A stretch of 64,000 nucleotides of DNA from Planctomycetota bacterium (GCA_965223265.1 OZ244999.1:6816001-6880000), one strand, 5' to 3'; positions 17,205 through 44,739 are shown, numbered from the stretch's first letter. A program made the numbers and translations. The notes: generated from the letters alone by a model not told the origin.

Positions 17205-17223
17205 GTGTATGAATTTCACTCAC
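17205..17223. promoter_or_regulatory. palindromic operator/UAS-like motif, copy 1
   Basis: GTGTATGAATTTCACTCAC; closely matches 22830-22848; lies upstream of the kinase-activator operon. Confidence 0.55.
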
Positions 17224-17333
17224 CTCATGAGCCGATAGAGATTCCTAAGAGACTTCCTCGCCACGAGTTCTGGCTACGCCAGTTTCCAGTGCACAAGAGG
17301 AACACGGCGCCCCGCCACGGCGAAAGCTGAGAG

Positions 17334-19106
17334 ATGAACGACACCCTGCCACCCAGCCGACCGTTTTGGCACGACAGCACCGAGCCGACGTCAGGCCCGA
17401 GCGCCGCCGAGCGTGCGGATCCGGATTGGATTGGGCCCTATCAGGTCCTCGGTCGACTGGGTGAAGGCAGCATGGGTGTTGTCTTTCGCTGCCGCGACCT
17501 ATCGCTCCAGCGCGATGTCGCCGTCAAGGTCTTGAGACGACGTTTTGAGAGCGACGACCGCTACCGGCGACGATTTCGTCGCGAAGCCAAAGCAGCGGCG
17601 AGCCTGTCTCACGACTGCGTCGTGCGCATCTTCGGCATTCACGAAGGACACGGTAGCGATCCGTCCTATCTCGTCATGGAGCTCGTCGCCGGCGACTCTG
17701 CCGATCGACTCATCGAAGAGCGCGGCCGCATCGCCGCGGGCGAATCCGTCACCTGGATCCGGGACGCCGCGATCGGGCTCCGGGAGGCGTCGAAGCGCGG
17801 CTTGATTCACCGCGATGTGAAACCGTCCAACCTTCTGGTGACCCCCAGCGACCACGTCAAGATCGTCGACTTCGGTCTCGCCAAGGATGTCGAGGCGAGT
17901 CCGTCACTGACTGAAGAAGGGATGGTCTTAGGCACACCTCACTATATTTCTCCCGAGCAGGGCCAGGGAAAGAAAGTCGATCAGCGCAGCGACATCTATT
18001 CCCTCGGTGCAACGCTCTATCACCTTCTCACCGGCGAGACCCCGTTCGACGGCGAATCGTCGGTGTCGGTGATCGTGGCGCACGTGAACACGTCACCCCG
18101 ACCACCGCATCTCGTCGTGGATGACATTTCGCTGTCGCTCTCGCGGGTCGTCCTCCGCATGCTCGCCAAGAGTCCAGGGGATCGCTACCCGTCATACGAC
18201 GAGCTCATCGAAGATCTCGAGGCAATCCTGGGCGGCGAGGAGCCTCCTCACGCGGGGTCGCATAGCGCTGGCACGCAGACGCCTCGACGTCGCGGGCCAC
18301 TGATCGCTGGGATTGCTGCGGTCGCCCTCGTCGCCGTGGTCGGAGGCTTAAGCCTTGGCGGTGTCTTCCAACCGCCCGCAGCAGCGGTCCCCTCACTGAC
18401 GTCCAGTCTGGGATCATGGTGCGTGTCTCAGACCGGCCGCGACGTAGACCTCGACTTCAACTTCGCGGCACCGCCCCCTGTTGCGACGCGTTTCGAGTTG
18501 CTCCAACGCATCCTGACCTTACCGCGCGATCTTCCCAATGATGTCGACGCGCCAGGGCTCCGTTCCGGCAACCTTCATCTTGCCGACTTCACGGCGCCGC
18601 TGGCGTTTTCGTTCGCCTTTGAGCGACTGGACCACGTCGCCGTCGAGATCAACGCGGCGTCGGACGACTGTCACCTGCAAATTGCGCTCTCCCATCCCGC
18701 TGCAGCGAGTCATCGCCAACTGCTCATTCGCCTCGACCTCGAGCACCGAAGCGACGCCGCGACCATCGTGGCCATCAGAAACGGTGAAGAGATCGCTGGC
18801 GCGCGGGAATTGCGTACGCGGGATGGTCAGACAGTGAGTCGTTTGCCGAGAGTTGGCCAGCCGCCACTGCGATTGGAGGTGGACTTCGAAGCTGCTGACG
18901 GTGAAACGCAGGTCTTAGCCCGTGTGTTCAGACCCCAGCGCCCGGAGCCGCTGTTCGAAGTGAAGCGCGTCATCGAAGGTGACGACTGGGTCAAAGGCGT
19001 CCCAACGCTCAGGTGCGCATCGACGCGCGGGGCGTACTCATTGCGGATCAGTCGGGTTGCCCTGCGCGGTAGGATCGGCGACACCGTCGTCCATCAGGTC
19101 CCCTAA
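17334..19106 (+). CDS. membrane-anchored Hanks-type Ser/Thr protein kinase
   Basis: LGEGSMG, VAVK, HRDVKPSN, DFG, GTPHYISPE, SDIYSLG; TM helix LIAGIAAVALVAVVGGL; uncharacterised C-terminal extracytoplasmic domain. Confidence 0.95.
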   Translation: MNDTLPPSRPFWHDSTEPTSGPSAAERADPDWIGPYQVLGRLGEGSMGVVFRCRDLSLQRDVAVKVLRRRFESDDRYRRRFRREAKAAASLSHDCVVRIFGIHEGHGSDPSYLVMELVAGDSADRLIEERGRIAAGESVTWIRDAAIGLREASKRGLIHRDVKPSNLLVTPSDHVKIVDFGLAKDVEASPSLTEEGMVLGTPHYISPEQGQGKKVDQRSDIYSLGATLYHLLTGETPFDGESSVSVIVAHVNTSPRPPHLVVDDISLSLSRVVLRMLAKSPGDRYPSYDELIEDLEAILGGEEPPHAGSHSAGTQTPRRRGPLIAGIAAVALVAVVGGLSLGGVFQPPAAAVPSLTSSLGSWCVSQTGRDVDLDFNFAAPPPVATRFELLQRILTLPRDLPNDVDAPGLRSGNLHLADFTAPLAFSFAFERLDHVAVEINAASDDCHLQIALSHPAAASHRQLLIRLDLEHRSDAATIVAIRNGEEIAGARELRTRDGQTVSRLPRVGQPPLRLEVDFEAADGETQVLARVFRPQRPEPLFEVKRVIEGDDWVKGVPTLRCASTRGAYSLRISRVALRGRIGDTVVHQVP

Positions 19107-19141
19107 CGAGCGACGCTCCAAAACATTTGCGAAACTCCGCC

Positions 19142-21046
19142 ATGACGATCACGACCAAGACCGACCCGCCCCCTCCGACCGGAGCGAAGCTCTCCGTGTC
19201 ATGCGGACCAGACTTAGGCGCCGAGTTCGATCTCGACACCGAGTTCACGAGTCGGACAGTCACCGTCGGACGCGATGAGCACGCTGACATCACGCTCAAC
19301 GATCCCGCCGTCTCGCGCGAACACTTTCGACTTGAGAAAGCATCGCGGGCGTGGCGCGTTGTTGATCTCGGGAGCCGCAACCAGACGTTCCTCAACGGCC
19401 GTCCCGTCAGCGACATCGAGCTGGCGGGAGGCGATGTACTGCGAGTCGGCGATACCGAACTTCGGTTTCAAGACAGCGAGCGGCTGGGTGGCGGCTCGAC
19501 GATCATGAAACATGTCCAGCAGCCAACGGGACGCGAAACGTTCCTGGAGCGCATCGATCACGTTGAACGCATGCTCGAAGAAGAGAAGGCCAAACGCGCG
19601 CTCGATGAGGTGCGTCGGCTTTTCGAAGTCCATCAACGACTCGCGACAACCGCTTCTTCTGACGAACTCTTTCATCGGATTCTCGCCGAAGTGGTGCCGG
19701 TACTCAAAGCCGACTCCGCGGTCGTCGTCGTCAATCAGGGCGGCGACTGGAAGGTGCGAGCGAAGTATCCGGACGAGAGTAGTGAGAAAGTCTCGTTCAG
19801 CCGCTCGGTCGTCCAGCGAGTCGCGGACAGCGGCGAAGCACTGCTCCTCGAGCGCGCCGAAGACGAGGAGGAGCTGCGAAAGAAACAGAGCATCGTCTCG
19901 CAAGACATCACAACGATCCTCGCGCTGCCGCTGCGAACAGGCGGCGCCGTCCGCGCCGTGATCTACACGGATCGCCGCGGCTCCGATCAACCATTCCTCG
20001 ACTCTGACCTTGAACTACTAACGGCAGCGCTCGACTCGGTCGCGCCGTTCGTCGGGCGTCTGCTCGAGGGCGAGAAACTCAAAGTCGAGAACCGTCACCT
20101 CTTCGAAAGTATTGCCTCTGACAAGAAGATCATCGGGCGCTCGCCGGCCATCGAAGCGGTTCTCAGTTTCATCCGGCGCGCCGCGCCGACACCGATGACG
20201 GTGCTCATTCAGGGTGAGACCGGCACCGGGAAAGAGCTCGTGGCGGCCGCGATCCATTACGCTAGCCCGCGCCGAGGCCAACCGTTTGTCGCTCTCAACT
20301 GCGCCGCGATGCCCGAGCAGCTTGCCGAAAGCGAACTGTTCGGCCACGAGAAGGGATCGTTCACCGGTGCGGCGAGCCGCCGCAAGGGACGGTTTGAGCT
20401 CGCCCATGGCGGCACGATCTTCCTGGACGAAGTTGGAGAGCTCTCGCCCGCCTGCCAGGCTAAACTTCTTCGACTCCTCGAAGAAAGGTGCTTCGAGCGC
20501 GTGGGCGGCGCGGAATCAATCGAAGTCGACGTCCGCGTCGTCGCCGCGACCAACCGCGACCTGCTCGGTGCCGTCGATGAGGGCGAATTTCGCGAGGATC
20601 TTTACTATCGATTGAACGTGCTCAGCGTTGAGCTACCGCCACTGCGCCAGCGCAGCGAAGACATCCCACTCCTCGTCGAACACTTCCTGGCCATGTCCCA
20701 CGCACAGCACAAGAGTCTGAGCAAACGGGCAGAAGAAGCTCTGCGCTCATACAATTGGCCGGGTAACATCCGGGAGCTGCGAAACGTCATCGAAAGCGCG
20801 GTCGTTCTCGGCACGGGTAACGTGATCAAGCCCGAAGATCTCCTGCTCACCCGCAGCCGACCGCGAAAAGCTCAGGCGACGGCGGCGTGGGAACCGATCA
20901 GCTTACAGCAGCTTGAGAAGAGCCACATCGCTCGCGTTCTGGAACACACCGGCGGCAACAAAAAGCGCGCCGCCGAGATCCTCGGCATCGAACGCTGCAC
21001 TCTCTACGCCAAGATTAAGAACTACGACCTGAACGACGCCACATGA
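19142..21046 (+). CDS. sigma54-dependent enhancer-binding protein, FHA-GAF-AAA+-Fis HTH
   Basis: FHA motifs VGRD, VSREH, DLGSRNQTFLNG; GAF region; GETGTGKE, ESELFGHEKGSFTGA, FLDEV, WPGNIREL; HTH GNKKRAAEILGI. Confidence 0.95.
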   Translation: MTITTKTDPPPPTGAKLSVSCGPDLGAEFDLDTEFTSRTVTVGRDEHADITLNDPAVSREHFRLEKASRAWRVVDLGSRNQTFLNGRPVSDIELAGGDVLRVGDTELRFQDSERLGGGSTIMKHVQQPTGRETFLERIDHVERMLEEEKAKRALDEVRRLFEVHQRLATTASSDELFHRILAEVVPVLKADSAVVVVNQGGDWKVRAKYPDESSEKVSFSRSVVQRVADSGEALLLERAEDEEELRKKQSIVSQDITTILALPLRTGGAVRAVIYTDRRGSDQPFLDSDLELLTAALDSVAPFVGRLLEGEKLKVENRHLFESIASDKKIIGRSPAIEAVLSFIRRAAPTPMTVLIQGETGTGKELVAAAIHYASPRRGQPFVALNCAAMPEQLAESELFGHEKGSFTGAASRRKGRFELAHGGTIFLDEVGELSPACQAKLLRLLEERCFERVGGAESIEVDVRVVAATNRDLLGAVDEGEFREDLYYRLNVLSVELPPLRQRSEDIPLLVEHFLAMSHAQHKSLSKRAEEALRSYNWPGNIRELRNVIESAVVLGTGNVIKPEDLLLTRSRPRKAQATAAWEPISLQQLEKSHIARVLEHTGGNKKRAAEILGIERCTLYAKIKNYDLNDAT

Positions 21047-22473
21047 ACCCGCCGCCTGAGCTCCTCCCCCAACACTGCGAAAAAATCCGCCCGGTACGGA
21101 GACTCGGTGTGGTCGGCGCGCTAGCTCGAGTTTGGCCATTTCGCGTCGAGCCTGCCAGCGCCAGGAGCGTCGAGGCCAAGGAGCGACTCGGGCGCGATCC
21201 CGCTCGGGTCGTGGCGGAGGACGGGCGCAGGCATCGGCGCTCCTGGCGTTCCCCGAAGGGCCGGACAGGAGTTTTTGAACATGCACAAGGGTTCTCAGGG
21301 TACGAAAAAGTCGAAAGGGCCTTTGAATCCCCGCGAAACTCGTCCGGCCAGGCCGGCGCGAAATGGCCAAACTCGAGGCTAGCACGTCTGACGATTCTCT
21401 CGTGCGCAGCGGGCGCTCTCTGCCTCGTCACGAGTTTCGCTCACGCGGACGAAGCGATCACGCCGGTGCGAGAGGACGGCCGCGGCGAAGGAGAGGCAGT
21501 GAAGACCGAGCGCGGCGCTCCGGCGAACGTGTCGAAACGGACGACAGAACCGGGCGCGCCAGCCGCAAAGTTCGAGTCTGGAGTTGCCAACGACAAGGCA
21601 CCGAACCAAGGGCAGGGCAGACAGCGCCAGCCAAGACGAATCGACCTCAAGCCGCGCCAGCCGCTGGCGTCTCGCAAGCCTGGCGGTGCCAAGACCAAAG
21701 CCGACGCGCCGCCACCGGTGGCGAAGAAGCGCGCCGGTGGCTTGGGTCTCCCTCCACGCACGGTTTCTTTGCCGATGCAGGGGGTCTACCGAGCGGCCGA
21801 ACTGATCGCACTGGCCGCAAAACTTCAGGATCTACCGCTGCGCACATCGAACGAGCAACTCGGTGAGATCCGCATTGCCATTCTCCCAGACCTTGCTGGC
21901 GCCCGCATCACGCTCAGCGAACTGCGCGTGCTCCTGGCGGCGCATCGGATTTATTTGCTGGAAGTCGATGATCCACGCGGCGAGCGCTTTCTCGTCGCCA
22001 CCGACGATCCGCGGTGGCGACCACGCGCGCTGCGCCACACCTACGTGCTCGAGGTCTCCGACAGCAGGTTCGCGGAGACCGAAGCGGCGCTCGCAAAGCG
22101 AGTCGCGACCTATAACGCTCAGCGCCCGAAAGGCGAGTTACCGGCCGCGGTCGTTGGGGCACCGCGCATGGGGCGCATTCTTCTGCGCGCCGGTAGCGCG
22201 CAAGCGCTCGAAGAACTAGTCGCGGTCGCTGAAGAGCACACAGCAGTGCGTCTTGCGCCCGATCCAGATCGTCCGAAAATGTTCATCTACACGGGCCGGA
22301 ATCGGCGCATCGGTGAGCTCAAAGAGCACGTTCTTAAGGAGCTGAGCGAGGTCGAGCGCGCGCAGACGCGCTGCATCACCCGCGGCAACCGACTCCTGTT
22401 TCGCGCCGCCCCGAAACTCGGAGAGCGCATCTTGAGACTGCTGCGCGAAGCCGATGTTCGCGCCAGCCGGTAA
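21043..22473 (+). CDS. secreted hypothetical protein with secretin N-domain-like region, carrying an in-frame MITE
   Basis: ATG overlaps the upstream stop (ATGA); a signal peptide ending AHA-DE is restored if MITE A is removed; C-terminal half resembles secretin N0/N1-type folds (weak). Confidence 0.6.
   Translation: MNPPPELLPQHCEKIRPVRRLGVVGALARVWPFRVEPASARSVEAKERLGRDPARVVAEDGRRHRRSWRSPKGRTGVFEHAQGFSGYEKVERAFESPRNSSGQAGAKWPNSRLARLTILSCAAGALCLVTSFAHADEAITPVREDGRGEGEAVKTERGAPANVSKRTTEPGAPAAKFESGVANDKAPNQGQGRQRQPRRIDLKPRQPLASRKPGGAKTKADAPPPVAKKRAGGLGLPPRTVSLPMQGVYRAAELIALAAKLQDLPLRTSNEQLGEIRIAILPDLAGARITLSELRVLLAAHRIYLLEVDDPRGERFLVATDDPRWRPRALRHTYVLEVSDSRFAETEAALAKRVATYNAQRPKGELPAAVVGAPRMGRILLRAGSAQALEELVAVAEEHTAVRLAPDPDRPKMFIYTGRNRRIGELKEHVLKELSEVERAQTRCITRGNRLLFRAAPKLGERILRLLREADVRASR
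21125..21378 (-). mobile_element. MITE family A, 254 bp
   Basis: Inverted near-identical copy of 8323-8576, with CTAG duplicated at 21121-21124 and 21379-21382. Confidence 0.92.
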
Positions 22474-22829: not shown

Positions 22830-22848
22830 GTGTATGAAATTCAAGCAC
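22830..22848. promoter_or_regulatory. palindromic UAS-like motif, copy 2
   Basis: GTGTATGAAATTCAAGCAC, about 125 bp upstream of a sigma54 -24 element. Confidence 0.6.
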
Positions 22849-22972: not shown

Positions 22973-22988
22973 TGGCCCGGGGTTTGCT
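22973..22988 (+). promoter_or_regulatory. sigma54 -24/-12 promoter for gspD operon
   Basis: TGGCCCG-GGGT-TTGCT matches TGGCACG-N4-TTGCW spacing exactly; AT-rich tract upstream at about 22917-22948. Confidence 0.75.
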
Positions 22989-23124: not shown

Positions 23125-25833
23125 ATGCGTAACAGCCTGTTGAACAATGTCATTCGGCTGAGAAACCAGCCGGCTGAGAAAACCCGACGTTCGTCACCGT
23201 CGTCTCGTGGTTGGTGGCACCAAAGCGCGGTTCTCGCGCTGGTCGTCGCACTCGTGACCGCACCAGCAACGCGACTTCCCGCCCAGGCGCCAGGCGGAGA
23301 CGACACCGCGGGTGAGGCGCCACCACCACCACCGCCGCAACCAGACGGCGGCGAAGGAGGCATCGGTGCTCCCCCCGATGCCATCGGCGCAGGTGACGAG
23401 CTCATTACCGGTGCATTCCGAGCCGACGAGGTGATCGAGATCGACGATGGCGAGATCCCGGGCGCGGACTTCCTCAAATTCCTGTCGCACTACACCGGCC
23501 TACCGGTGCTCATCGACAGCAAGCAGCTCGCGAGCCTGACGACGATCAACATTGCGGCGCCGATCAGGCAGGCCGACGGCGAAATCGTCAAAGCGATCCT
23601 CGAGTCGAACGGCCTCAGCGTCACCGAACGCGTCTTGCCCAGCGGACGCTCGGTGATCCGCGTCGAAGGCGCAACGACAGGCGCGGCCGCCGCCCAGCGT
23701 GGACCCGAACCGAGCCCGATCATTGTCGTCACGGCGGACGAGCTTGGGGAACTTGCGAACGTTCCACGACCTGACGAAGTCGCGACGATGATCTTTCGCC
23801 TCCGACATCGCGAGCCAGCTGACGTCATCAAAGCTCTCGGCGACCTCGTCGGTGGCGGCGGCGGCGGCACGACGCCGGGGCGCGCAGCCACGCGTACGGG
23901 GCAGTACAGCCTGACGGAAGTTGAAGGCTCACCGGTCGTCGTCGTGAAGGCGAAGTTCGGCCTCCTCGATTTCTTTCACAAACTCGTCTACGAGATCATC
24001 GACCTGCCGGTGAGCGCTCCCGATCGGATCATCGAGATCGTCGACATCGAAAACGCCTATGCCGACGAACTCGTTCAGATCATCGAGACCTTCATTTTCG
24101 ATGGCCGCCGCTCCACGTCGAGCGTGCGCCGCACGGCCTCAACGCCTGCCTCTGGGACGGCCGCTCAGGGCGCGGCAGCGCGCGCACGACGCACGTCGAC
24201 GACGACGGAAGAGTACGAGACCAAGGTCATCGCGGAGCCGAGAACCAACAAGATCCTCATCGAGACCTACGACGAGCAGGATCTCCAAGACATCTTCATG
24301 CTCATTCGGGCTCTCGACATCCGCTACGAGCTCAGACGCCTCAAGACCTACATCTATCAAGTGCAGTATCTGAAAGCCGACGAAGTCGCCACGACGATTC
24401 AGAGTCTCGTTGGAGGTGCCGGATTCGGGGGCCGTACCGGAAGCAGCAGCCTCGGCCAGGCTCGCACCCGCGGCCTGTCACGAGGAGTTCAGCGACGCGG
24501 CCAGACAACGCGCACACCAACGCCAACGACGCAGACTCCGGGCACCGCAGGCGCCGCCTCGGCTGGCGCCCCGCTGATCGTGCCGCACATCGAGACGAAC
24601 TCGCTCATCATCCAGGCCGAGCCCGAAGACCGCGCCGAGGTGCTCAACATCCTCGAGCAGATCGACACCAAGCGGCGCCAGGTGTTCCTCGAGGCGGCGC
24701 TCGTGCAGGTGACGTCGGACAGCACGCTCAATTTTGTCATCGAGCTGCTCGCGGGCGAGCCGGACGATCGCTCGACGCGAGCCCTGTTCGAAACGTCGTT
24801 CGGCCTCAGCGGCCTAGACTTCGAAAACTTCAACCGCGCCATCCCAGATCTCTCCAATCCCGCCTCTGTGCCCAGGGGTGCGCTCGTCGCCATCATGAAC
24901 CGCGGCAAGTTCCCGGCGCTGATTCAGTTCTTCAAGACCAACACGGACAGCCAGGTCTTGGCGACGCCGTTCATTCTCGCCGACGACAACATGCCGAACG
25001 TGATCCAGATTCTGCAGACACAGTTCGTGCAGACGACCGCGTCGACCGCCGCCGGCCAGACGACATCACAGGAAGCCGAAGACGCCGGTATTATCCTGGA
25101 GATCACGCCGACGATCAGCTCGGAGAGCGCAGTCTTCCTTGAGATGAGCCTCGAAGTGTCGGAGTTCTCTGGCGCCCCGCCGGCGGCCGGTGTGCTGCCG
25201 CCCAAGCTGACGAACACGATCACTTCGGCGGTAACGATTCCAGATGGCGATCTCTTCGTCATCGGCGGTCTGACGCGCGAAAACAAATCGAAGAACGTCT
25301 CCAAAATCCCGATCCTCGGCGACATTCCTCTGCTCGGTAAGCTGTTTCGCTCCGAAGGCTCGGCAAAGAGCACGTCGAACCTCTACATCTTCCTTCGCGC
25401 GCACGTCCTCAGTCACCCTGAGTTCGAAGACCACAAGGAGCTGACACGAAACGCGGAGGATGAGGTCAGCAGGATTTCGAACGTCGAAAAGATCACCAAG
25501 TTCCCGGCGCCGAACGTGCCGCTGCCGCCACCGCCGGCGGTCGACCCGGACGCGCCGACTCGCTTCCAGCTCAACCCCGGCGGGGAGACTAGTTCGTCTC
25601 GCTACGACCCGGAGAGCGAACGACGCCGCTACGCGAACGACCCCGAGAGTCCTTTCGCATCAGGAGGTCTCAACGGAGCGGGCGCCGAACCTGTACCGCG
25701 CCTGCCGCTGACGACGGATCCGGCTACCGAGGAAGAGCTACTCATCGACCAGCAGAACCGAGCCTTGCGCGGCACCGGTGCCAGGGTCGACAAGACCGGA
25801 AAGAGTTGGATCGTGCCGATCGAGGCGAGATGA
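23125..25833 (+). CDS. gspD: type II secretion secretin GspD
   Basis: Start chosen at ATG 23125 after GAGGAG; N domains, KRRQVFLEAALVQV, QVLATP, AGIILEITPTI, SKIPILGDIPLLGKLFRS. Confidence 0.92.
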   Translation: MRNSLLNNVIRLRNQPAEKTRRSSPSSRGWWHQSAVLALVVALVTAPATRLPAQAPGGDDTAGEAPPPPPPQPDGGEGGIGAPPDAIGAGDELITGAFRADEVIEIDDGEIPGADFLKFLSHYTGLPVLIDSKQLASLTTINIAAPIRQADGEIVKAILESNGLSVTERVLPSGRSVIRVEGATTGAAAAQRGPEPSPIIVVTADELGELANVPRPDEVATMIFRLRHREPADVIKALGDLVGGGGGGTTPGRAATRTGQYSLTEVEGSPVVVVKAKFGLLDFFHKLVYEIIDLPVSAPDRIIEIVDIENAYADELVQIIETFIFDGRRSTSSVRRTASTPASGTAAQGAAARARRTSTTTEEYETKVIAEPRTNKILIETYDEQDLQDIFMLIRALDIRYELRRLKTYIYQVQYLKADEVATTIQSLVGGAGFGGRTGSSSLGQARTRGLSRGVQRRGQTTRTPTPTTQTPGTAGAASAGAPLIVPHIETNSLIIQAEPEDRAEVLNILEQIDTKRRQVFLEAALVQVTSDSTLNFVIELLAGEPDDRSTRALFETSFGLSGLDFENFNRAIPDLSNPASVPRGALVAIMNRGKFPALIQFFKTNTDSQVLATPFILADDNMPNVIQILQTQFVQTTASTAAGQTTSQEAEDAGIILEITPTISSESAVFLEMSLEVSEFSGAPPAAGVLPPKLTNTITSAVTIPDGDLFVIGGLTRENKSKNVSKIPILGDIPLLGKLFRSEGSAKSTSNLYIFLRAHVLSHPEFEDHKELTRNAEDEVSRISNVEKITKFPAPNVPLPPPPAVDPDAPTRFQLNPGGETSSSRYDPESERRRYANDPESPFASGGLNGAGAEPVPRLPLTTDPATEEELLIDQQNRALRGTGARVDKTGKSWIVPIEAR

Positions 25834-25951: not shown

Positions 25952-27652
25952 ATGAAACTGAGCGTCTTTGAACACCTCGTCGACGAAGGACTCATCGATC
26001 GCGAGCAGCTCGATGAGTGTCAGGCGATCGTCAGCGAAAGCGGCGAGCCGCTCGACCGTGTGCTGCGCGCGAAAGGGTTCGTTTCGGAGGCAGCACTCCT
26101 CGACGTCCTGAGTCGTGTCCTACGGCTCGAGCTGCGAGAGGATATCGAAGAGATCGAGGTACCGCGCGTCTTCGTCCAGCGGGTGCCGGCACAGTTCGCG
26201 CGCAACTACAATCTCGTGGGACTGTCACGCGACAATGGCACGTTCCACGTCGCCACGTGCGACCCGCTTGATATCCATCCGATGGACGAGCTCTCCAGCT
26301 TGCTCGAGGCCGACGTCGTCCCCGTGTTGTCACCGCGAGCGAAGATCACGTCTCTGATCAATCGCGCCTACCAGCGCTCTTCGACCGACGTCGACGAGCT
26401 GCTCGACGGCATCGAAGAAGATGACATGATCAGCCTGACGAAGATCGTCGACGAGTCTGAGGACGTCCTCGACATCGCGAACAAGCCGCCGATCATCAAG
26501 CTGATGAATACGATCCTCTTCGAGGCTCTGAAGATTCGCGCCAGCGACATCCATCTGCAGCCTTACGTGGATCGTCTCCAGGTACGCTACCGGATCGATG
26601 GCATTCTCTACGAAGCCAAGGTGATCCCGAAAAAGTTCCAAGACGCGATCATTTCGCGTGTCAAAGTGATGGGCAAAATGGACATCGCGGAGCGTCGACT
26701 GCCGCAAGACGGACGCACGACGATCAAGGTCGGCGACGGCGAGGTGGACGTGCGTATCTCTTCGGTGCCGACCTCCTCCGGCGAGCGCATCGTTTTTCGT
26801 CTGCTGGACAAGAGCGCCCGTCTCTACCGCTTGCACGAAATCGGACTCGGCGAAAGCAGCCTCGACTTGGTGCGCAATCTGATCAGCTATTCCCACGGAA
26901 TCGTTCTGATCACAGGCCCAACCGGAAGCGGCAAAACGACCACGCTCTACGCCGCGCTCGCTGAGATCAATTCCGAAGAAAAGAACGTCATCACGATCGA
27001 AGACCCAATCGAGTACAACATTGACGGCATCAGCCAGATTCAGGTTTCGAACAAGAAGGGCCTGACGTTCGCCTCGGGACTGCGCTCGCTCATGCGGCAG
27101 GACCCCGACGTCATGATGGTCGGTGAGATTCGAGACGGCGAGACCGCGAACATCGCCGTGCAGGCAGCGAACACCGGCCACCTCGTCTTCTCGACCTTGC
27201 ACACCAACGACTCCACCGGCGCGATTAGCCGTATGATCAACCTCGGCGTCGAGCCTTACCTCACAGCTTCGGCAGTGATCGGCGTCATCGCCCAGCGTCT
27301 CGTGCGCCTGATCTGTCCGCACTGCCGCGAGCCCTTCGAAGCGACCGACGCCCAGCTTGCTGAGCTTGGTGTCGAGCGTGGTCAGCTCGACAACAATCAG
27401 CTTTGGCGCGGCCATGGCTGCGAGCACTGTCTTGGTCGTGGACTCTTCGACCGGACCGCGATCTACGAAATCCTCGTCATCGATGAGGACGCACGCGACC
27501 AGATCATCTCCCGCACCAGCGCGTCGGTGATGAAGCAGTCTGCCGTACAGCGAGGCTTGCGGACGCTCCGCATGGACGGGGCGCAGCGGGTCGTCGAGGG
27601 CAAGACGACCATTGAAGAGGTGTTCCGCGTCACGCAGCTCGACGTTTTCTAA
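25952..27652 (+). CDS. gspE: type II secretion ATPase GspE/PulE
   Basis: ASDIH, ERRLPQDGR, GPTGSGKT, TIEDPIEY, RQDPDVMMVGEIRD, STLHTND, CPHC..CEHC. Confidence 0.96.
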   Translation: MKLSVFEHLVDEGLIDREQLDECQAIVSESGEPLDRVLRAKGFVSEAALLDVLSRVLRLELREDIEEIEVPRVFVQRVPAQFARNYNLVGLSRDNGTFHVATCDPLDIHPMDELSSLLEADVVPVLSPRAKITSLINRAYQRSSTDVDELLDGIEEDDMISLTKIVDESEDVLDIANKPPIIKLMNTILFEALKIRASDIHLQPYVDRLQVRYRIDGILYEAKVIPKKFQDAIISRVKVMGKMDIAERRLPQDGRTTIKVGDGEVDVRISSVPTSSGERIVFRLLDKSARLYRLHEIGLGESSLDLVRNLISYSHGIVLITGPTGSGKTTTLYAALAEINSEEKNVITIEDPIEYNIDGISQIQVSNKKGLTFASGLRSLMRQDPDVMMVGEIRDGETANIAVQAANTGHLVFSTLHTNDSTGAISRMINLGVEPYLTASAVIGVIAQRLVRLICPHCREPFEATDAQLAELGVERGQLDNNQLWRGHGCEHCLGRGLFDRTAIYEILVIDEDARDQIISRTSASVMKQSAVQRGLRTLRMDGAQRVVEGKTTIEEVFRVTQLDVF

Positions 27653-27710
27653 GCCGATCGCCGCGGCGGTCGGCAACCACGGTCTTTTCGATTTCCATAG
27701 GCACACGGAC

Positions 27711-32379: not shown

Positions 32380-32395
32380 CGGTACGCGGATTGCT
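32380..32395 (+). promoter_or_regulatory. sigma54 -24/-12 promoter for Kelch lipoprotein gene
   Basis: CGGTACG-CGGA-TTGCT with correct GG/GC spacing. Confidence 0.6.
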
Positions 32396-34538: not shown

Positions 34539-35612
34539 ATGAACTCCCGCCCCATCCTCCCCATCGCGCTGTTCGCCGGCCTCGGCCTGGCTTGTCTCGC
34601 TCTGTGCTTCTACCTGTTCCTCGGCATTCGGCAAAGCGTCGAGCTTCAGCCGGCGCCGACCGCAGCGCCGACTCCGGTTCCCACGATCACTCCGATCGGT
34701 TCGCCGACAGACCCTGATCCATACATCCTCGAGCAGACGCCGCGCTACGAAGGCCGCTACTCGCGCTGGAACATCGCCGATTTCCCGGCAGGCTGGGACG
34801 ACGCCCTGGCAAGCAAGATTCACGCCTATTTCGAGCGCATGGAATTCCAAGACGCGCGCCTTCGTAATGACATCATCGCGATGCGCGAAGAGTTCCGCGA
34901 CTTCCTCGCTACGCTCGGCCCCGAGGCGCTACCGACCCTCGCGGCGATATTGAACCACGAATCAGATTTCGTCGATCGCCGCTTCCTGCTCTACGCAATC
35001 GGCGAGCTCGGCCCCGAAGCCGAAGAAGCGACGTTTCATCTGCGCGATTTCTTCGAAGCCCGGCGCGAGGATCCGAACGCATTCTCTGAGATGCTGCATG
35101 TGATCTCGGCGATGTCGCATCTGGAGAATGACACGTCGATGGGCACGCTGCAGGAGTATGTCGCGCGAGACGAGTTGGATCGGTTCAGACCGAAGCTCAT
35201 CGAGGCTCTCGGCCGTCACCCACGCCGCGGCGAAGCCGTCGACCAGATCGTCGGCTACGTCGACGACGGCCACCCGAATGTCCGCAACAAGGCGGCGCAG
35301 TTTCTTGGCGAGACCCGGCAGGAAAATACCCTCGATACGGTTTACCGCGCCCTCGAAGGCGAATCGAACCCAGTGGTTCGCCAGACGCTCCTCGGCACCG
35401 TAGGAAAGATCGGCTCTCCAGACTCGATTCCGTTCCTGGCGAACGAAGCGAAATACGCCACGCAGCGTGTCGTGCGCCTGAGCGCCGCCAGAGCCATCAG
35501 CCGCATCGGAACCGAGTACGGAAAAGAAACCCTGCGCGAACTGATCGCTCAGGAACCTGACGACTACGTCAGGGACAACATCCGCAAGTGGCTTACCGAG
35601 CTCGAGTCGTAA
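34539..35612 (+). CDS. membrane-anchored HEAT-repeat protein
   Basis: N-terminal TM helix, Pro/Thr linker, repeats such as VRNKAAQFLG, VRQTLLGTVGKIG, VRLSAARAISRIG. Confidence 0.8.
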   Translation: MNSRPILPIALFAGLGLACLALCFYLFLGIRQSVELQPAPTAAPTPVPTITPIGSPTDPDPYILEQTPRYEGRYSRWNIADFPAGWDDALASKIHAYFERMEFQDARLRNDIIAMREEFRDFLATLGPEALPTLAAILNHESDFVDRRFLLYAIGELGPEAEEATFHLRDFFEARREDPNAFSEMLHVISAMSHLENDTSMGTLQEYVARDELDRFRPKLIEALGRHPRRGEAVDQIVGYVDDGHPNVRNKAAQFLGETRQENTLDTVYRALEGESNPVVRQTLLGTVGKIGSPDSIPFLANEAKYATQRVVRLSAARAISRIGTEYGKETLRELIAQEPDDYVRDNIRKWLTELES

Positions 35613-36036: not shown

Positions 36037-38394
36037 ATGAGCCGCCTCTCCCGTTACACTCCCAAACCAGGCTCCACGGTCGGCGACGCCGCCGTACCGC
36101 TCGCCGGACCGTTCATCGCACTTCTCGCGGTGCTGAGCCTCGCCCTGCAGGGCTGCCGCGATCGCACGGATGCCGTGCTGCTGCGAGCTGAGGTCGCAGA
36201 CGACAACCACAACGGAATCGTCGATGCCGGGGAGCTGCTCGAGCTCAGCTTCGACACCGCATTGAGCCACGAGATCAGCGCCGACGAGCTCCTCATCGCG
36301 GCCTCCAGCGGCGAGACGCTCCCCTGCGAGCTGCAGCGCCGCGAGGGTCAACGACTGGTCTTCACCATCTCAGAGACTCGCCAGCCCCTGCGAATCAGTG
36401 GCGTCTTTGACCCCGAGCATCGCAGCGGCGACGCAGCGGCAGCCGTCTCGGTACTCCTCACTGCGGATGACCCGCCACATTGGGTCGACCTCGACTTCTC
36501 CCGGTCGCACCCCGTCCTGCAGCGCGCCGTGTGGAAAGATGCACCGCCGTTCGATCTCGTCGTCAATCGTGGCGACATCGTCGAGCTCGTGTTCGACCGA
36601 CCTGTCGAGCTGCGAGCGCGCGACGGTGCGGCAACGGTACGGCGACCAGTTCTCCGACGTCCCGACGAAATCACCTTTGCTGGCGACCTCGATCGACTCG
36701 ACGACGGACGGGTGAGGACCGTCCTGCAGCAAAGCGGTACCGACCCGATGACGGTGCAGGCGGTCCTCGGCTCAAGCCCCTTCTTCGCGGTCGGCGAGAC
36801 CCTCATGGATGCGCCCGACAGCGGCGGCGACCGGCAGCCTTCGGCACTCGTTCTCGGCGGCAGTGTCGTCTTTCCCCTCACCACTATCGTCAACCCGCGC
36901 GGCGGCTGGGGCGCTGTGTCCTCTGGCCCCATCAGCATCGAAGCGGACGCGTCACTGCCGCGCCCACGGAGTTTACCCGGCCTGCGATTCCCATCACCGG
37001 GAGATCGCCGCGGCCACACCGTCACACCGCTTTCGGAGACGCGCGCGCTCGTCATCGGAGGCGAAGCGCTCGCCACCAAGAGCCCTCTCAACCAAATCCT
37101 ACTCTTCGATCCACGCGGACCCGGACGCCTCCGTGATCTGGAGAGCGACGGCGTCGCCCTCCCTACCGGCTCGATCAAACACACCGCGACTCTCCTCCCG
37201 GGAAACGATGGTATCGCGCGCAGCGAAGACGATCTCATTGTTGTGATCGGCGGGACAAACGCTTCGCAGGAAGCACTCGACACCGTCCTAGCCCTTCAAC
37301 TGGAGGGGCGGAGCGTCGCGCTGGCGAAATTCCGTGGCGGTGCGCCCCCGAGACTCCGAGTCCCCCGTGCAGAACACGCCGCGGTCGCCGTCGGTCCATA
37401 CTCGATTCTCATTGACGGCGGCAACGCAAGCGGCTCCCGCCGCTCAGGACTCGTCGGCTGCGCCGAACTCATCCGATTCGCGCCTTCCAAAGACCGAACG
37501 CTCACCGTGGTCGAGCATAGCCTCGTTCGATCCCTGCCGCGGATCGGCCACACGCTCACGCTGCTGCCAATCACTCCAGCTGGCGAGACCTTCGTCCTCG
37601 CCTACGGAGGGTATGGGGCGCCACCGCAAAGGGATCTCAGCGGTCGGCTGCCCGGCAACCAAGACGCTCGCCTGGGTGAGCCTGTCGGCTCACCCGCTGC
37701 CGCAGATTTCTTCGTCGACTATGCCGTCCGCGGGGCGGTGCTCGTCTCGCCGGTGCTCTTCAACATCGGTGATCCCACTCAGTCCATCCGGATCGAGCTC
37801 TCGCCGTCGACCTACCACTTCGCCATGCCTCGATCCGGGCATGGCGCCATGCTGCTCGAGGGCCACGACAATCAGCCGAGCCGGGTCGTCATCGCTGGTG
37901 GGACCTCGTATCACTTGTCGCAGGGTTACGGCGGCGGCCTCTCCAGCTGGGAGACGCCAGTTGACGTGCTCACCGAGCGCCGTGGCCGCTCGAGTCCGAT
38001 TCCCGAGCCGCACGACGCCGGTGACGCGGTCGTCTTTCACTTCGCACCCGAAGAGCCCGCAGCCAGTACGTTCGAAATCCTCCCCAATCCATCGTCAGAC
38101 GCCGCGCAGGTCATGCCGCGCACGTCGCCGGCAACCGTGCATGTTCCGGGTTTGGGCGTCCTGTTTCTCGGGGGATACTCGCCGCCAGAGGGCATGCCTC
38201 TGGCTGAAGCCGCGGTGTTCGTCGAGCGCGTCGGGACCGACCCCTGGACCAAGCTCGCTGTGGGACTGCTTTGCGGCCGGAGCGGACACGCTGCTTACGC
38301 CGCCAGCCGCGGCGGAGTGCCGGCGATCTACGTGCTCGGTGGCGAGACCCTCGGCTCGGAGTGTGCCTCGGTGGAGTACGTGCCTCTGCGGTGA
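36037..38394 (+). CDS. Kelch-repeat lipoprotein with N-terminal Ig-like/EF-hand-like region
   Basis: Lipobox LQG-C; DDNHNGIVDAGE; blades RRGHTVT..LVIGG, HTATLL, RAEHAA, RIGHTLT, RSGHGA, RSGHAA. Confidence 0.75.
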   Translation: MSRLSRYTPKPGSTVGDAAVPLAGPFIALLAVLSLALQGCRDRTDAVLLRAEVADDNHNGIVDAGELLELSFDTALSHEISADELLIAASSGETLPCELQRREGQRLVFTISETRQPLRISGVFDPEHRSGDAAAAVSVLLTADDPPHWVDLDFSRSHPVLQRAVWKDAPPFDLVVNRGDIVELVFDRPVELRARDGAATVRRPVLRRPDEITFAGDLDRLDDGRVRTVLQQSGTDPMTVQAVLGSSPFFAVGETLMDAPDSGGDRQPSALVLGGSVVFPLTTIVNPRGGWGAVSSGPISIEADASLPRPRSLPGLRFPSPGDRRGHTVTPLSETRALVIGGEALATKSPLNQILLFDPRGPGRLRDLESDGVALPTGSIKHTATLLPGNDGIARSEDDLIVVIGGTNASQEALDTVLALQLEGRSVALAKFRGGAPPRLRVPRAEHAAVAVGPYSILIDGGNASGSRRSGLVGCAELIRFAPSKDRTLTVVEHSLVRSLPRIGHTLTLLPITPAGETFVLAYGGYGAPPQRDLSGRLPGNQDARLGEPVGSPAAADFFVDYAVRGAVLVSPVLFNIGDPTQSIRIELSPSTYHFAMPRSGHGAMLLEGHDNQPSRVVIAGGTSYHLSQGYGGGLSSWETPVDVLTERRGRSSPIPEPHDAGDAVVFHFAPEEPAASTFEILPNPSSDAAQVMPRTSPATVHVPGLGVLFLGGYSPPEGMPLAEAAVFVERVGTDPWTKLAVGLLCGRSGHAAYAASRGGVPAIYVLGGETLGSECASVEYVPLR

Positions 38395-38672: not shown

Positions 38673-39218
38673 CTACGGCCCGCCCGGCGCTTCATAGTCA
38701 ACGAACTGCACTGAACAAAGCCACTGATCCTCTCCCGGCGAGCGCCGATCCCGACGGAGATCGAACGACTGCACGCGCACCGTCGACTTCGCGGCCTTGA
38801 CGGCGGCGACGAACTGCAGAATCGGCGTCATCTTGGCGACGTTGAGGTCAAGAGATTGTTGAACCTCCCTGCGCCCCGTCTGGCTGCGCGAAGGAGGCGT
38901 CACCAACGGCGGGAACGTCTTGTAGCTCAGGGCGTAGCTCTCAAGCTTCTCGGTGATCAGATCCCGAAGGCCGCGCTGACTCTTTGGGCTCTGCTCGCTC
39001 GCATGCCACTGCTGCTGCAGGATCTTCGATTCCGGTGTCAGCAGCCGGTCGCCGAGGCGACCGTACGCTGCCGTCGCACCTGTGGCGGCCTGACCCCACG
39101 ACGGAATCAGATACGACTTCAGGACCAGCGTCATGAGGAAAAACCCGCCAGCCGTCATGAAGAAGGTGAGGATCGCAATCTGGAGCTTTTGGCCGCCATC
39201 GGCCTGTGAGGTGTTCAT
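38673..39218 (-). CDS. GspM/PilO-like inner-membrane protein
   Basis: Single N-terminal TM helix and a ferredoxin-like periplasmic pattern (ILQFVAAV..VQSFDL); follows the PilM/GspL gene. Confidence 0.6.
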   Translation of the reverse strand: MNTSQADGGQKLQIAILTFFMTAGGFFLMTLVLKSYLIPSWGQAATGATAAYGRLGDRLLTPESKILQQQWHASEQSPKSQRGLRDLITEKLESYALSYKTFPPLVTPPSRSQTGRREVQQSLDLNVAKMTPILQFVAAVKAAKSTVRVQSFDLRRDRRSPGEDQWLCSVQFVDYEAPGGP

Positions 39219-42457: not shown

Positions 42458-44395
42458 TCAGTTCGTCGCGTGCTGCCAGAAAAGCACTTCCATCATACCT
42501 CGCTGGAGGTCACGGCGAACGAGCAAAGTGCCGCGGGTCAGCGATCGAGACTGCTCCGTCTTGGCACTCATCTTGACTTCAAAGTGCGTACTGCCGAAGA
42601 CTCCGACTTTCTCCAGATCGTTCTGAACGCGCCGGTACAGACTGTCGAGCTCGCCGCTGACTCGATCAACACCGTCGTCGCGGCGCAGTAGATCTTCGGG
42701 TCCGCCGTCGTGACCGTCGATCAGCTCGAGCTGCTCGAGGCTCGTGAAATAGTTCGTCTCAAGGTCTTCGTACGTGCTAGCGACATACTCGCCAGCGGCC
42801 AGCGAGGTCGACAGTTGGGCCAGCTCCTCGTCGGTCGGTGGTGGCTCCCGTCGTGGTTGACCGAGGTCCGGAATCCCGAAGGCGTCCATACGCTCGACGC
42901 CCTCTTCGTCGGAGGCGACCTCTTGAAAACGATTGCGATAGGCCTCGATATTCGTCGCGACGCCGTCGGCCTCGTCTTCCGTCAGCGAACCGAGGAGCCC
43001 AAAGAGCACCTCAACGCCGACCGTATTCAGATTGATCTTCCCTGCCGACTCGGTGCAGAAGAGATCCCGCAGCCCCAGCGGTAGCCGCGGTTCGATCACG
43101 ATCTCTTCGCCGTTCTCGTCCATCTCGATGAGCGGATCGCTCATGCCCCGCGTCAAACCGTTCGCCAGGAGCCGATCGAACCCCGTGCCCATGGGCAGAT
43201 TCGCGTATGGGCCGCCGAACTCACTCAATGCTGACTCGAGCTGCTCGCGCTGCATTTCCAGGTCGTCTTCGCTGAAGAACGGATCGACGAGGACGAAATC
43301 GCCAAACTCGTCGTGCCGCAGGGTGTGCCCCTCGTTCGTCTCGAACTCATCGCCATCTGCTAACTGCGGAATCGGTCCATAGAAAACTTCCGGTGTGATG
43401 GACTCGAGCGTGAGGAGCTCGGTGACGACATGGACGCGGCTATCTTCGAGACTTTGCTGTCGCTCGAGAACGAAGGCGACAATCTCGCTCGCGATCTGGT
43501 CAGGGAAGTACTTTCGATCATACGTATAGCCGCCACGATTCTCATTCAGACTGAAGAGCATGAGGATCGCGCGACGGAGCATCTCCTGCGTCGCCTGAAC
43601 GCGTTCAGGTAGCGGCGGTAGCGGCGGCTCGGGTGGATCATAGGCGCTCAACTCATCCCCGTATCCGTCCCCGGGTAGCGTCGGGTCGGACCCGTCTCCC
43701 TCGCCCTCGCCGACTCGCTGGATGCCGCCACCAGCCCGGGCGTCTCGCCGCTCGCTTAAGACGCGGTCACGTAGCGACTGCGCGGCCTCCTCTGCTGTTC
43801 GCCCCTCGACTGCGTCCAGAAGGTCCTCGTCGTCGAGGCCCACCACGCCGTCGAACTCTTCTCCGGGCAACCGCACGTAGTCAAAGAGACGATTGAGATC
43901 CAGTCGGCTCTCCGTGTCGCGTGTGCGGATCTTCACGGCGATGTTGCCGATATTCTGCTCGTTGTCGAGAAAGATGTTCTCGCGCAAGTAGTCATACCAA
44001 CGCCCGCCAGCTGCTCCACCTGTGAGCGCGGCGTTCTCGCCAGTGAGCGTCGATAGGTCCATCTCCGGCCCCATTCCCGGCAGGCCAGGAATCCCTGCCG
44101 CGGCGGCAGAATCGCCAGCGGGCATCCCGTCCCCACCTGCTCCCGCTTCCAGGTCACGCTTGAGATCTTCGTTCAGAACGGTCATCACGTAGAGCCCAGC
44201 AGAGTAGAGCGCCGCCGCCGCTTCGACTTCGCCGTAGCGCACAGCCGCGATCTTTGCTTCCATGCTGGTGGAAAAGTGCAGGTGCGAGACGACAAGGTAG
44301 AGCACGACGAACAGAATCATGACGAGAAGCAGCGCGATCCCTCGATCGCGTCTCGCTCCGGCGCGCTCACCGAGTTGGGACGCCTGCAGTTGCAT
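42458..44395 (-). CDS. gspK: minor pseudopilin GspK
   Basis: G|IALLLVM (no E5, as typical of GspK), DTESRLDLN, ELLTLESIT, GKINLNT, FTSLEQL. Confidence 0.85.
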   Translation of the reverse strand: MQLQASQLGERAGARRDRGIALLLVMILFVVLYLVVSHLHFSTSMEAKIAAVRYGEVEAAAALYSAGLYVMTVLNEDLKRDLEAGAGGDGMPAGDSAAAAGIPGLPGMGPEMDLSTLTGENAALTGGAAGGRWYDYLRENIFLDNEQNIGNIAVKIRTRDTESRLDLNRLFDYVRLPGEEFDGVVGLDDEDLLDAVEGRTAEEAAQSLRDRVLSERRDARAGGGIQRVGEGEGDGSDPTLPGDGYGDELSAYDPPEPPLPPLPERVQATQEMLRRAILMLFSLNENRGGYTYDRKYFPDQIASEIVAFVLERQQSLEDSRVHVVTELLTLESITPEVFYGPIPQLADGDEFETNEGHTLRHDEFGDFVLVDPFFSEDDLEMQREQLESALSEFGGPYANLPMGTGFDRLLANGLTRGMSDPLIEMDENGEEIVIEPRLPLGLRDLFCTESAGKINLNTVGVEVLFGLLGSLTEDEADGVATNIEAYRNRFQEVASDEEGVERMDAFGIPDLGQPRREPPPTDEELAQLSTSLAAGEYVASTYEDLETNYFTSLEQLELIDGHDGGPEDLLRRDDGVDRVSGELDSLYRRVQNDLEKVGVFGSTHFEVKMSAKTEQSRSLTRGTLLVRRDLQRGMMEVLFWQHATN

Positions 44396-44572
44396 GTCTC
44401 TCCGGTCTCGTCATCCCACGTTTTTCGGTTCCGAGGCTGTCCCACCCTCGCCGCGCCGCTGCAGCACGCGTCGGAAAGGCTCGAGGTCACGGCACGTTTG
44501 GGAAACACAGCTCGCCGCCTCAATCTACGCGCCCGGCCGTTGGCAAACGGTCCGAACACCCAGACAGGTCAT

Positions 44573-44588
44573 AGCAACTCCGATGCCG
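44573..44588 (-). promoter_or_regulatory. sigma54 -24/-12 promoter for gspK operon
   Basis: Minus strand CGGCATC-GGAG-TTGCT; AT-rich tract upstream at about 44640-44670. Confidence 0.7.
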
Positions 44589-44720
44589 CGGCGCTAAAAA
44601 GTGCACAAAACGCCCCTTTCCTTATCGTCACGACTTCCTGAAGTTCTTGTATCATAAACGTTTAATTTTTGTGCTCCAGCCCGGCGCCAACACTGGCGCT
44701 GGGGGTTCCAGCCGCTGCGA

Positions 44721-44739
44721 CTGTTTCAAACTCAAACAC
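44721..44739. promoter_or_regulatory. UAS-like motif, copy 3
   Basis: CTGTTTCAAACTCAAACAC, 14/19 identical to the 22830 motif, about 133 bp upstream of the gspK -24 element. Confidence 0.45.

Follow-up and report, generated by a model that had tools for sequence, protein, structure and literature searches.

A Receptor Kinase and an FHA-GAF Sigma-54 Activator Adjoin a Type II Secretion-Like Gene Cluster with Conserved Promoter Boxes and a Candidate Enhancer Dyad in Planctomycetota

The locus described here raises the question of how a planctomycete might couple an extracytoplasmic signal to the transcription of a secretion machine. It lies in a 64,000-nucleotide stretch of DNA (the window; positions 6,816,001 to 6,880,000) from a Planctomycetota bacterium whose genome (GCA_965223265.1, OZ244999.1) is a single contig of 9.18 Mb with approximately 62% G+C. 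An initial annotation had singled out window positions 17205 to 44739 as one regulon, in which a kinase and a sigma-54 activator would drive a type II secretion system (T2SS)-like machine and its cargo. Scans of the encoded proteins against Pfam and NCBIfam were used to build a map of the window; what the initial annotation had observed was confirmed, and its interpretation was supported in part only. The cluster is flanked by housekeeping genes, with two LeuA-type synthases and a glycosyltransferase on one side and NadB and HflX on the other. We consider it probable that the whole cluster is a lineage-wide planctomycete locus for a T2SS-like type IV filament machine, organized in four transcription units.

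Unit 1: kinase, activator and secretin-N-domain protein
Unit 2: gspD-E-F-G-H-I-J, with a predicted sigma-54 promoter
Unit 3: Kelch lipoprotein, HEAT protein and Kelch lipoprotein, with a predicted sigma-54 promoter
Unit 4: convergent gspK-like gene, 404-amino-acid (aa) gene, gspL-like gene and gspM-position gene, with a predicted sigma-54 promoter

The first two genes of unit 1 encode the proposed regulators.

17334..19106, plus strand: receptor-type Hanks Ser/Thr kinase (Pkinase, E 5.3e-47, residues 36 to 285)
19127..21046, plus strand: FHA-GAF-AAA+(sigma-54)-HTH_8 enhancer-binding protein, from its Pfam domains

The kinase domain is followed by one hydrophobic (transmembrane) segment and then by a C-terminal ectodomain of approximately 245 residues, for which the Pfam and NCBIfam scans gave no family match. 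Leads for the ectodomain from a language-model atlas (unnamed clusters, PelX_N and 3keto-disac_hyd, with 106 to 128 shared features) were weak and were not relied on. In the activator, the FHA domain occupies residues 45 to 108 (PF00498, E 1e-17), the GAF domain residues 179 to 306, the AAA+ core residues 335 to 501 (Sigma54_activat, PF00158, E 1.6e-72, with the AAA lid also matched) and HTH_8 residues 593 to 633; the Pfam scan gave no Response_reg (receiver, or REC) match. The receptor-like Ser/Thr kinase next to an FHA-GAF sigma-54 activator without REC, as the initial annotation had described the pair, was borne out by these domain scans and by the adjacency of the two genes. The Walker A (GETGTGKE) and Walker B (DEVGE) motifs of the activator are intact, as is its sigma-54 contact loop (GSFTGA, a GAFTGA variant that keeps the F and the T).

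A search for the activator over 40 relatives returned full-length orthologues with 40 to 64% identity. Twenty stretches were fetched from 19 genomes (13 genera, 5 families, one class) and the window proteins were mapped onto them by tblastn, and eight further loci came from a scan of species-representative genomes using an 8-row alignment; the relatives are Planctomycetota metagenome-assembled genomes, and their loci are given L numbers below. The initial annotation had suggested asking whether homologs of the kinase and activator stay linked to gsp genes in such genomes, and they do. The kinase gene was directly upstream of the activator gene and on the same strand in 19 of 19 loci of the first set and in 8 of 8 of the second (27/27), the two genes abutting or nearly so, and a downstream GspE gene was present in every one of the 21 loci with a long enough contig (16 of the first set and 5 of the second). 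Each of the 16 far-reaching contigs of the first set carries GspE, GspF, GspG and pseudopilin genes downstream, in most cases followed by Kelch-HEAT-Kelch in the same order. A secretin was found in 26 of the 27 related loci when the corrected secretin sequence (see below) was used, the exception (L049) ending early. In the closest relative (L024), as in six relatives at class level (L124 to L129), the second Kelch gene is immediately followed by the convergent gspK/gspL arm; in L123, no match to this arm came from the first 14 kb of the extension.

The residues on which a kinase-to-FHA signal would depend are also conserved. Catalytic K65, the HRD motif (H159, R160, D161) and the DFG motif (D179, F180, G181) were invariant in 16 of 16 kinase orthologues, which keep the single transmembrane segment after the kinase domain and, in most cases, the activation-loop Thr. 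FHA domains bind phospho-threonine (pThr) through a signature of Gly-Arg, Ser-x-x-His and Asn, and the corresponding activator residues (G48 and R49; S63, R64 and H66; S83 and N85) were invariant in 20 of 20 orthologues. The retention of both sets of residues is consistent with, and not proof of, a route from kinase to pThr to FHA.

The predicted promoters were examined next to this gene order. Sigma-54 promoters have a -24/-12 consensus in which GG and GC stand 10 nucleotides (nt) apart in a TGGCAC-N5-TTGCW-like context, and the initial annotation had placed such boxes at 22973, 32380 and 44588. All three were found there and were conserved at orthologous positions.

22973..22988, plus strand: -24/-12 box of the gspD operon, TGGCCCGGGGTTTGCT, 1 mismatch to TGGCAC-N5-TTGCW, GC at 22986-22987
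32380..32395, plus strand: -24/-12 box of the Kelch-HEAT-Kelch operon, CGGTACGCGGATTGCT, 2 mismatches, GC at 32393-32394
44588..44573, minus strand: -24/-12 box of the gspK-like operon, CGGCATCGGAGTTGCT, 2 mismatches, GC at 44575-44574

GG-N10-GC is kept in all three. Transcription is predicted to start approximately 12 nt past each GC, near 22999 (plus strand), 32406 (plus strand) and 44562 (minus strand). The secretin open reading frame (ORF) as listed (22936) would contain the first box; its start was therefore corrected to the in-frame ATG at 23125, after which a signal peptide is encoded. The number of boxes in the window is uninformative, because 21 were seen at up to 2 mismatches and 22.63 +/- 4.8 in shuffled sequence, with at least 21 in 69 of 100 shuffles. 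Their placement is informative: of the cluster's nine intergenic gaps, just the three before the secretin, first Kelch and gspK-like genes have a box when 3 mismatches are allowed, in each case on the correct strand, and the other six have none. Comparable boxes number 1609 per 2 x 9.18 Mb genome-wide, so approximately 0.04 to 0.06 would be expected per gap. In relatives, the secretin box was present at up to 2 mismatches, with GG and GC, in 21 of the 26 that could be assessed (10 of them perfect), and the remaining 5 had it at 3 mismatches in the equivalent place (26/26 at up to 3). Of 13 relatives, 10 have the Kelch box with no more than 2 mismatches and 2 more have it with 3, and the gspK-like box was found in all 7 examined, namely, the closest relative (L024) and L124 to L129, where it reads TGGCA[CT]GAG[AT]TCTGCC. 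Over 29 oriented sequences (487,506 bp), boxes with no or one mismatch numbered 21 on the cluster strand versus 1 on the opposite strand. These results demonstrate that the placement and conservation of the three boxes are far beyond chance. The sigma factor itself, whose absence from the genome the initial annotation had named as a reason to reject its reading, is encoded twice, with Sigma54_DBD matches (E 2.4e-58 and 4.0e-56) that are both above the family cut-off and lie at G000:C1:7158881-7159357 and 5073831-5074307 (L001 and L002). Outside the cluster, a one-mismatch box (CGGCACTTTGATTGCT) occurs at 48757-48772 on the minus strand, within the plus-strand ORF 48122-49003; it is possibly intragenic or due to chance.

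An alignment of the secretin upstream regions revealed a conserved 19-bp inverted repeat, GTGTT-N9-AACAC, which also occurs upstream of the gspK-like box.

22830..22848, no strand assigned: candidate enhancer dyad of the secretin gene, GTGTATGAAATTCAAGCAC, 2 mismatches, 143 bp upstream of the secretin box
44721..44739, no strand assigned: candidate enhancer dyad of the gspK-like gene, GTGTTTGAGTTTGAAACAG as read on the minus strand, 1 mismatch, 151 bp upstream of the box

The window's secretin dyad aligns with perfect or one-mismatch dyads of relatives. When all fetched loci (627,378 bp) were scanned at up to 1 mismatch, 30 sites were found. Half of them (15) precede the secretin box, 7 precede the kinase gene in one genus, 2 (in the window and the closest relative) precede the gspK-like box and the other 6 lie elsewhere. 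The 12 perfect dyads were all upstream of a secretin or gspK-like gene, versus approximately 0.3 estimated by chance from base composition. The distance from dyad to box was 122 to 143 bp at the secretin gene. At the gspK-like promoter it was 151 to 152 bp in seven of eight genomes and 143 bp in the other, a spacing held across family-to-class distances. A conserved dyad at such a distance is what an activator with a Fis-type helix-turn-helix would be expected to use as its upstream activating sequence. At both promoters an A+T-rich tract lies between dyad and box and could be a DNA bending site. Genome-wide, the dyad is otherwise no more frequent than expected by chance (110 copies with one mismatch and 3 perfect ones), and the sole convincing dyad-plus-box pair at up to 1 mismatch was that of the gspK-like gene, the secretin dyad with its 2 mismatches falling outside that scan. 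The regulon therefore looks local, no other convincing pair being present. In one genus (L029, L030, L051, L052, L054, L056 and L057), a one-mismatch dyad, GTGTTTGATATTCAACCAC, and variants of it occur approximately 64 bp upstream of the kinase gene, which suggests that the kinase-activator operon may be autoregulated in that genus; no dyad was seen upstream of the kinase gene in the window.

Taken together, the overall explanation that we regard as best, and as likely on balance, is that the cluster of four units contains its own regulator, which acts through the dyad at promoters 2 (gspD) and 4 (gspK-like). The adjacent FHA-GAF activator would bind GTGTT-N9-AACAC approximately 120 to 150 bp upstream of these promoters and use ATP to open the sigma-54 closed complexes at both. 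The co-transcribed receptor kinase would create a pThr that is read by the FHA domain of the activator, and the GAF domain would provide a second input. The parts of this explanation differ in strength. Sigma-54 wiring of both gsp operons via a conserved candidate enhancer beside a dedicated FHA-GAF activator is well founded, and it is likely, judging from position and conservation, that the dyad is the enhancer to which that activator binds. Switching of the activator by the kinase, via pThr read by FHA and with GAF as a second input, is predicted with slightly more than even confidence; the path from an extracytoplasmic signal through the kinase to FHA that the initial annotation had proposed rests on adjacency, domain logic and conserved residues.

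Several observations count against this explanation. The window's own secretin dyad is imperfect, with 2 mismatches, and no dyad was found within 300 bp of the secretin box in five relatives (L023, which is the closest, and the class-level relatives L033, L034, L035 and L041). In four of these five the secretin box comes immediately after the activator gene, so any dyad there would fall in coding sequence. At the Kelch promoters, a scan of 300 bp that allowed 2 mismatches found the dyad in none of the 14 genomes. The assignment of the dyad to the adjacent activator rests on adjacency and co-conservation, and the relatives are kin rather than independent samples. The genome also has many sigma-54 activators (33 among the matches listed), and there are 22 to 30 FHA-matching stretches per genome in these planctomycetes; with dozens of FHA proteins and probably many kinases in each genome, cross-talk between kinases and FHA domains is possible. 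Finally, a second FHA-GAF activator of the same genome has no kinase within 12 kb.

The many activators of the genome, together with a Kelch promoter that evidently works without the dyad, would fit an arrangement in which the boxes are real and respond to other activators, with different targets for the adjacent one and an unrelated factor on the dyad. We regard this as very improbable, as dyad, box and activator have been retained together, at fixed spacing, from family up to class level, the dyad stands before the kinase-activator operon itself in one genus, as in autoregulation, and no convincing dyad-plus-box pair was found elsewhere in the genome.

The number of FHA proteins and the kinase-less paralog bear instead on the input, since the adjacent activator could drive the gsp promoters while responding mainly to a GAF ligand or to a different kinase, the neighboring kinase having other targets, such as parts of the machine. 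The GAF domain is kept in all orthologues, and elsewhere the FHA-GAF cassette is fused to cyclase, histidine-kinase ATPase and SpoIIE outputs. Nevertheless, the kinase and activator genes share a strand and are immediate neighbors with almost no gap in each of the 27 loci, which span 5 families, and the kinase catalytic and FHA pThr-binding residues are all retained, and we therefore consider a main input other than the neighboring kinase rather unlikely and continue to favor the kinase as the switch.

The FHA-GAF cassette was also seen outside such activators. In other Planctomycetota it is fused to an adenylate/guanylate cyclase (L060, L110 and L117), to a histidine-kinase ATPase (L061) and to a SpoIIE/PP2C phosphatase (L063 and L094), and because it is fused to these other outputs it appears to be a general input module. 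The three cyclase fusions sit 6 to 8 kb downstream of a related gspE/F/G-pseudopilin cluster.

We then considered what kind of machine the two gsp operons encode. Their products are as follows.

23125..25833, plus strand: secretin (GspD-like), with Secretin and Secretin_N matches; TIGR02517, 241.4 bits versus a cut-off of 351.35
25952..27652, plus strand: GspE-type ATPase; T2SSE, E 1.5e-130; TIGR02533, 627.6 bits versus a cut-off of 630.25
27612..28952, plus strand: GspF platform protein; TIGR02120, 432.9 bits, above the cut-off of 424
29141..29596, plus strand: GspG-like prepilin with an N_methyl motif; 72.6 bits versus a cut-off of 88.85
29544..30329, plus strand: GspH-like, with an N_methyl motif; weak match below cut-off
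30336..30887, plus strand: GspI-like, with an N_methyl motif; weak match below cut-off
30924..32021, plus strand: GspJ-like, with an N_methyl motif; weak match below cut-off
38673..39218, minus strand: small bitopic protein in the GspM position; no family match, orthologue in L024
39221..41137, minus strand: GspL/PilM-like protein (PilM_2) with an actin-like N-domain, a transmembrane segment and a periplasmic part; conserved in L124 to L129
41187..42401, minus strand: bitopic low-complexity protein of 404 aa; no family match
42458..44395, minus strand: GspK-like large minor pseudopilin with a GspK-type N-terminus; NF037980, E 1.5e-5, 24.7 bits versus a cut-off of 130

The core components GspD, GspE, GspF and GspG are encoded together, and a T2SS family is the best-scoring one for each, while GspH, GspI, GspJ, GspK and GspL are recognizable weakly, below the NCBIfam cut-offs. 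The GspL/PilM-like protein matches TIGR01175, TIGR01709 and Amuc_1101, all below their cut-offs, a sequence search of solved structures with the GspK-like protein gave nothing useful, and no GspC was recognized among the cluster proteins in the Pfam and NCBIfam scans. Two Peptidase_A24 (prepilin peptidase) matches were found elsewhere in the genome and none in the cluster. With seven full-length GspE/PilB-type ATPase genes in the genome (12 T2SSE-family matches in all), the machine must be one of several type IV filament systems. Residues 7 to 55 of the GspE-type ATPase have a sub-threshold match to the MshE-related c-di-GMP-binding motif NF053729 (35.8 bits versus a cut-off of 38), which hints at a possible second-messenger input at this ATPase. 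On the basis of its genes, we call the machine T2SS-like.

A different assignment, to a pilus- or fiber-forming type IV filament system as in Planctomycetes-Verrucomicrobia-Chlamydiae (PVC) bacteria, with the Kelch and HEAT proteins as envelope accessory parts and not cargo, would account for the scores of the minor pseudopilins, GspK, GspL and GspD below the T2SS equivalog cut-offs, for the weak matches to the Akkermansia pilus families Amuc_1098 and Amuc_1101 and to the Verru_Chthon (Verrucomicrobia) pseudopilin cassette, and for the presence of Kelch-HEAT-Kelch between both gsp arms, like built-in parts, in every relative that reaches them. It sits less well with a GspF above the T2SS equivalog cut-off and a GspE that is 3 bits short of it, with a GspK-like giant minor pseudopilin and a fused GspL-like protein, with the lack of a PilT-type gene in the cluster and with a Kelch model whose top matches are generic Kelch domains and not pilus tip adhesins. 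We view this assignment as a serious possibility that is nonetheless less probable than a T2SS-like machine.

The genes between the two gsp arms form unit 3.

32506..34416, plus strand: Kelch beta-propeller lipoprotein; lipobox Cys C31 invariant in 10 orthologues
34539..35612, plus strand: membrane-anchored HEAT-repeat protein (HEAT_2, E 1.2e-21) with an N-terminal hydrophobic segment; syntenic in relatives
36037..38394, plus strand: second Kelch-type lipoprotein, with Kelch matches and the lipobox LALQGC; syntenic in relatives

A sequence search of solved structures with the first Kelch lipoprotein gave nothing useful. Its AlphaFold2 (AF2) model (pLDDT 63.1, pTM 0.70) matched ordinary six-bladed Kelch domains (e.g., KEAP1 and KLHL12) and designed Kelch proteins in Foldseek at E values of approximately 1e-12. 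A PilY1-like tip adhesin had been considered because this gene follows the minor pseudopilin genes, and it was rejected on account of these generic top matches. An ORF at 35588-36040 (150 aa), between the HEAT and second Kelch genes, had no family match and no tblastn match in relatives and is probably spurious. In the closest relative (L023/L024), the Kelch lipoprotein and HEAT pair is tandemly duplicated; there is no box before the first copy, and a near-identical, window-like box (CGGTACGGCGCTTGCA) precedes the second.

Judging from its box, the Kelch operon is of the sigma-54 type. When its upstream regions were analyzed by dyad and k-mer enumeration, no other shared dyad or word was found, and a relaxed TGT-N11-ACA scan returned only the loosely similar CTGTG-N9-CACAC in L031, L036 and L037, at differing distances. 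As neither scans nor enumeration gave anything consistent, a shared enhancer at this promoter was rejected. The single regulon of the initial annotation was thus supported for the secretin and gspK-like promoters, which share box and dyad, and not for the Kelch promoter, which has the box and no dyad. That the same adjacent activator serves the Kelch promoter is conceivable and somewhat doubtful. A role for the Kelch lipoproteins as substrates of the machine or as its surface cargo is a reasonable and tentative idea, and we would put it as slightly less likely still; export of lipoproteins by a T2SS is known elsewhere, e.g., for pullulanase. They may instead be receptors at the surface or components of the machine itself. 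In L036 to L040, a conserved element of approximately 75 nt lies approximately 130 to 200 bp upstream of the Kelch box; an inverted repeat (GGGGCCTCCGG / CCGGAGGCCCC) frames it, and it contains a T-arm-like stretch. A tRNA was rejected as the identity of this element, which belongs to relatives of family f6, since ARAGORN found no tRNA and there was no Rfam match.

The third gene of unit 1 has a repeat inserted in its 5' end.

21043..22473, plus strand: periplasmic secretin N0/N1/N2-like protein; its start overlaps the activator stop codon
21120..21383, no strand assigned: miniature inverted-repeat transposable element (MITE)-like interspersed repeat of 264 bp with terminal inverted repeats of approximately 26 bp

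The protein had no Pfam or NCBIfam match. Its orthologues likewise begin with an ATG that overlaps the activator stop codon and have Sec signal peptides. In the language-model atlas, the conserved C-terminal 250 residues cluster with Planctomycetota Secretin_N proteins (0.93, 177 shared features). The AF2 model has a mean pLDDT of 72.6, with approximately 83 to 95 in the conserved part, and in Foldseek it matched the N0-N1-N2 domains of XcpQ (E 2.3e-8) as well as the N-domains of GspD and InvG; the TM-scores were low, as expected for domains arranged like beads on a string. According to this model, the regulatory operon also encodes a free-standing periplasmic protein of secretin N-domains. 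The repeat is inserted in frame, 77 nt into the gene and free of stop codons, and adds 88 residues before the signal peptide. It gave 110 blastn high-scoring segment pairs in the genome, itself included, most at 91 to 100% identity, and a further copy lies at window positions 8320-8579. Scans for sigma-70-type promoters and terminators gave zero matches in the intergenic gaps of the cluster, with counts near the shuffle level.

Several known systems resemble parts of this arrangement. FHA-domain sigma-54 enhancer-binding proteins were reportedly described in Myxococcus xanthus by Jelsbak, Givskov and Kaiser in 2005. Like these, the activator analyzed here has an N-terminal FHA input instead of a receiver and belongs to an organism rich in Hanks-type kinases. 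Unlike them, it has a partner kinase directly upstream in every relative and a GAF domain that follows FHA, and its proposed target is a T2SS-like machine, upstream of whose genes a dyad can be recognized, whereas the Myxococcus targets are developmental genes. In Mycobacterium tuberculosis, the receptor Ser/Thr kinase PknH is encoded beside EmbR, an FHA transcription factor that reads its phosphorylation. The adjoining of a receptor Ser/Thr kinase gene and a gene for an FHA-bearing transcription factor is common to both loci, but EmbR, a sigma-70 regulator of the OmpR/SARP type, is no AAA+ sigma-54 activator and acts on arabinosyltransferase genes. The secretion system of type VI (T6SS) is controlled by the PpkA kinase with Fha1 and by separate sigma-54 activators such as VasH or Sfa2. 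There too, a secretion nanomachine is under both a Ser/Thr kinase-FHA pair and sigma-54; the T6SS FHA protein, however, is a post-translational assembly factor and the activator is separate, whereas here FHA and activator are fused and the machine is T2SS-like. NifA, which binds TGT-N10-ACA, has the same GAF-AAA+-HTH_8 core and a TGT...ACA-type dyad at enhancer distance, and NifA (TIGR01817) is the best NCBIfam match of the activator. Its score of 392.7 bits is nevertheless under the equivalog cut-off of 528.85, the FHA domain is extra, the dyad core is TGT-N11-ACA and the targets are not nif genes, and the activator was not assigned to the NifA family. In Plesiomonas shigelloides, an rpoN deletion lowered T2SS-2 transcripts in RNA-seq (PMC9743648), which parallels the sigma-54 dependence predicted here for T2SS genes. 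The passages of that study that bear on T2SS-2 name no dedicated activator, kinase or mapped promoter, whereas here the boxes, the dyad and the kinase-activator pair are in the cluster. Neither FHA nor Planctomycetes nor type II secretion comes up in the main text of a comparative sigma-54 study (PMC3162934).

No description of a kinase-FHA-activator module governing a T2SS was found in open-access full text, in agreement with the initial annotation, which had considered the complete layout undescribed for a T2SS. FHA-bearing sigma-54 activators, kinase-FHA transcription factors and sigma-54 control of secretion are individually known; the GTGTT-N9-AACAC candidate enhancer dyad upstream of the secretin and gspK-like boxes is new here. 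A broader proposal joins all of these elements. A class-level lineage would have replaced a two-component input by a pThr switch, running from kinase to FHA-GAF to AAA+, as the master regulator of a T2SS-like machine acting through GTGTT-N9-AACAC; FHA-GAF would be a portable pThr cassette that also serves cyclase, histidine-kinase and PP2C outputs; and a second sigma-54 activator would control the Kelch proteins, as machine-dependent surface lipoproteins of a new class. That all of this holds jointly is unlikely, and we offer it as speculation.

It is rare for kinase, activator, candidate enhancer, promoters and target machine all to be found in one conserved locus. The partner kinases of FHA-type activators have so far been hard to pin down, and this locus gives a directly testable model of how Hanks-type kinases may feed into sigma-54 transcription. 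Electrophoretic mobility shift, reporter and phosphorylation assays could make direct use of the predicted start sites, the 19-bp dyad and the invariant FHA residues. For the Planctomycetota, which have an unusual envelope and few genetic systems, the locus would offer an initial point of entry into the regulation of a secretion or filament machine.

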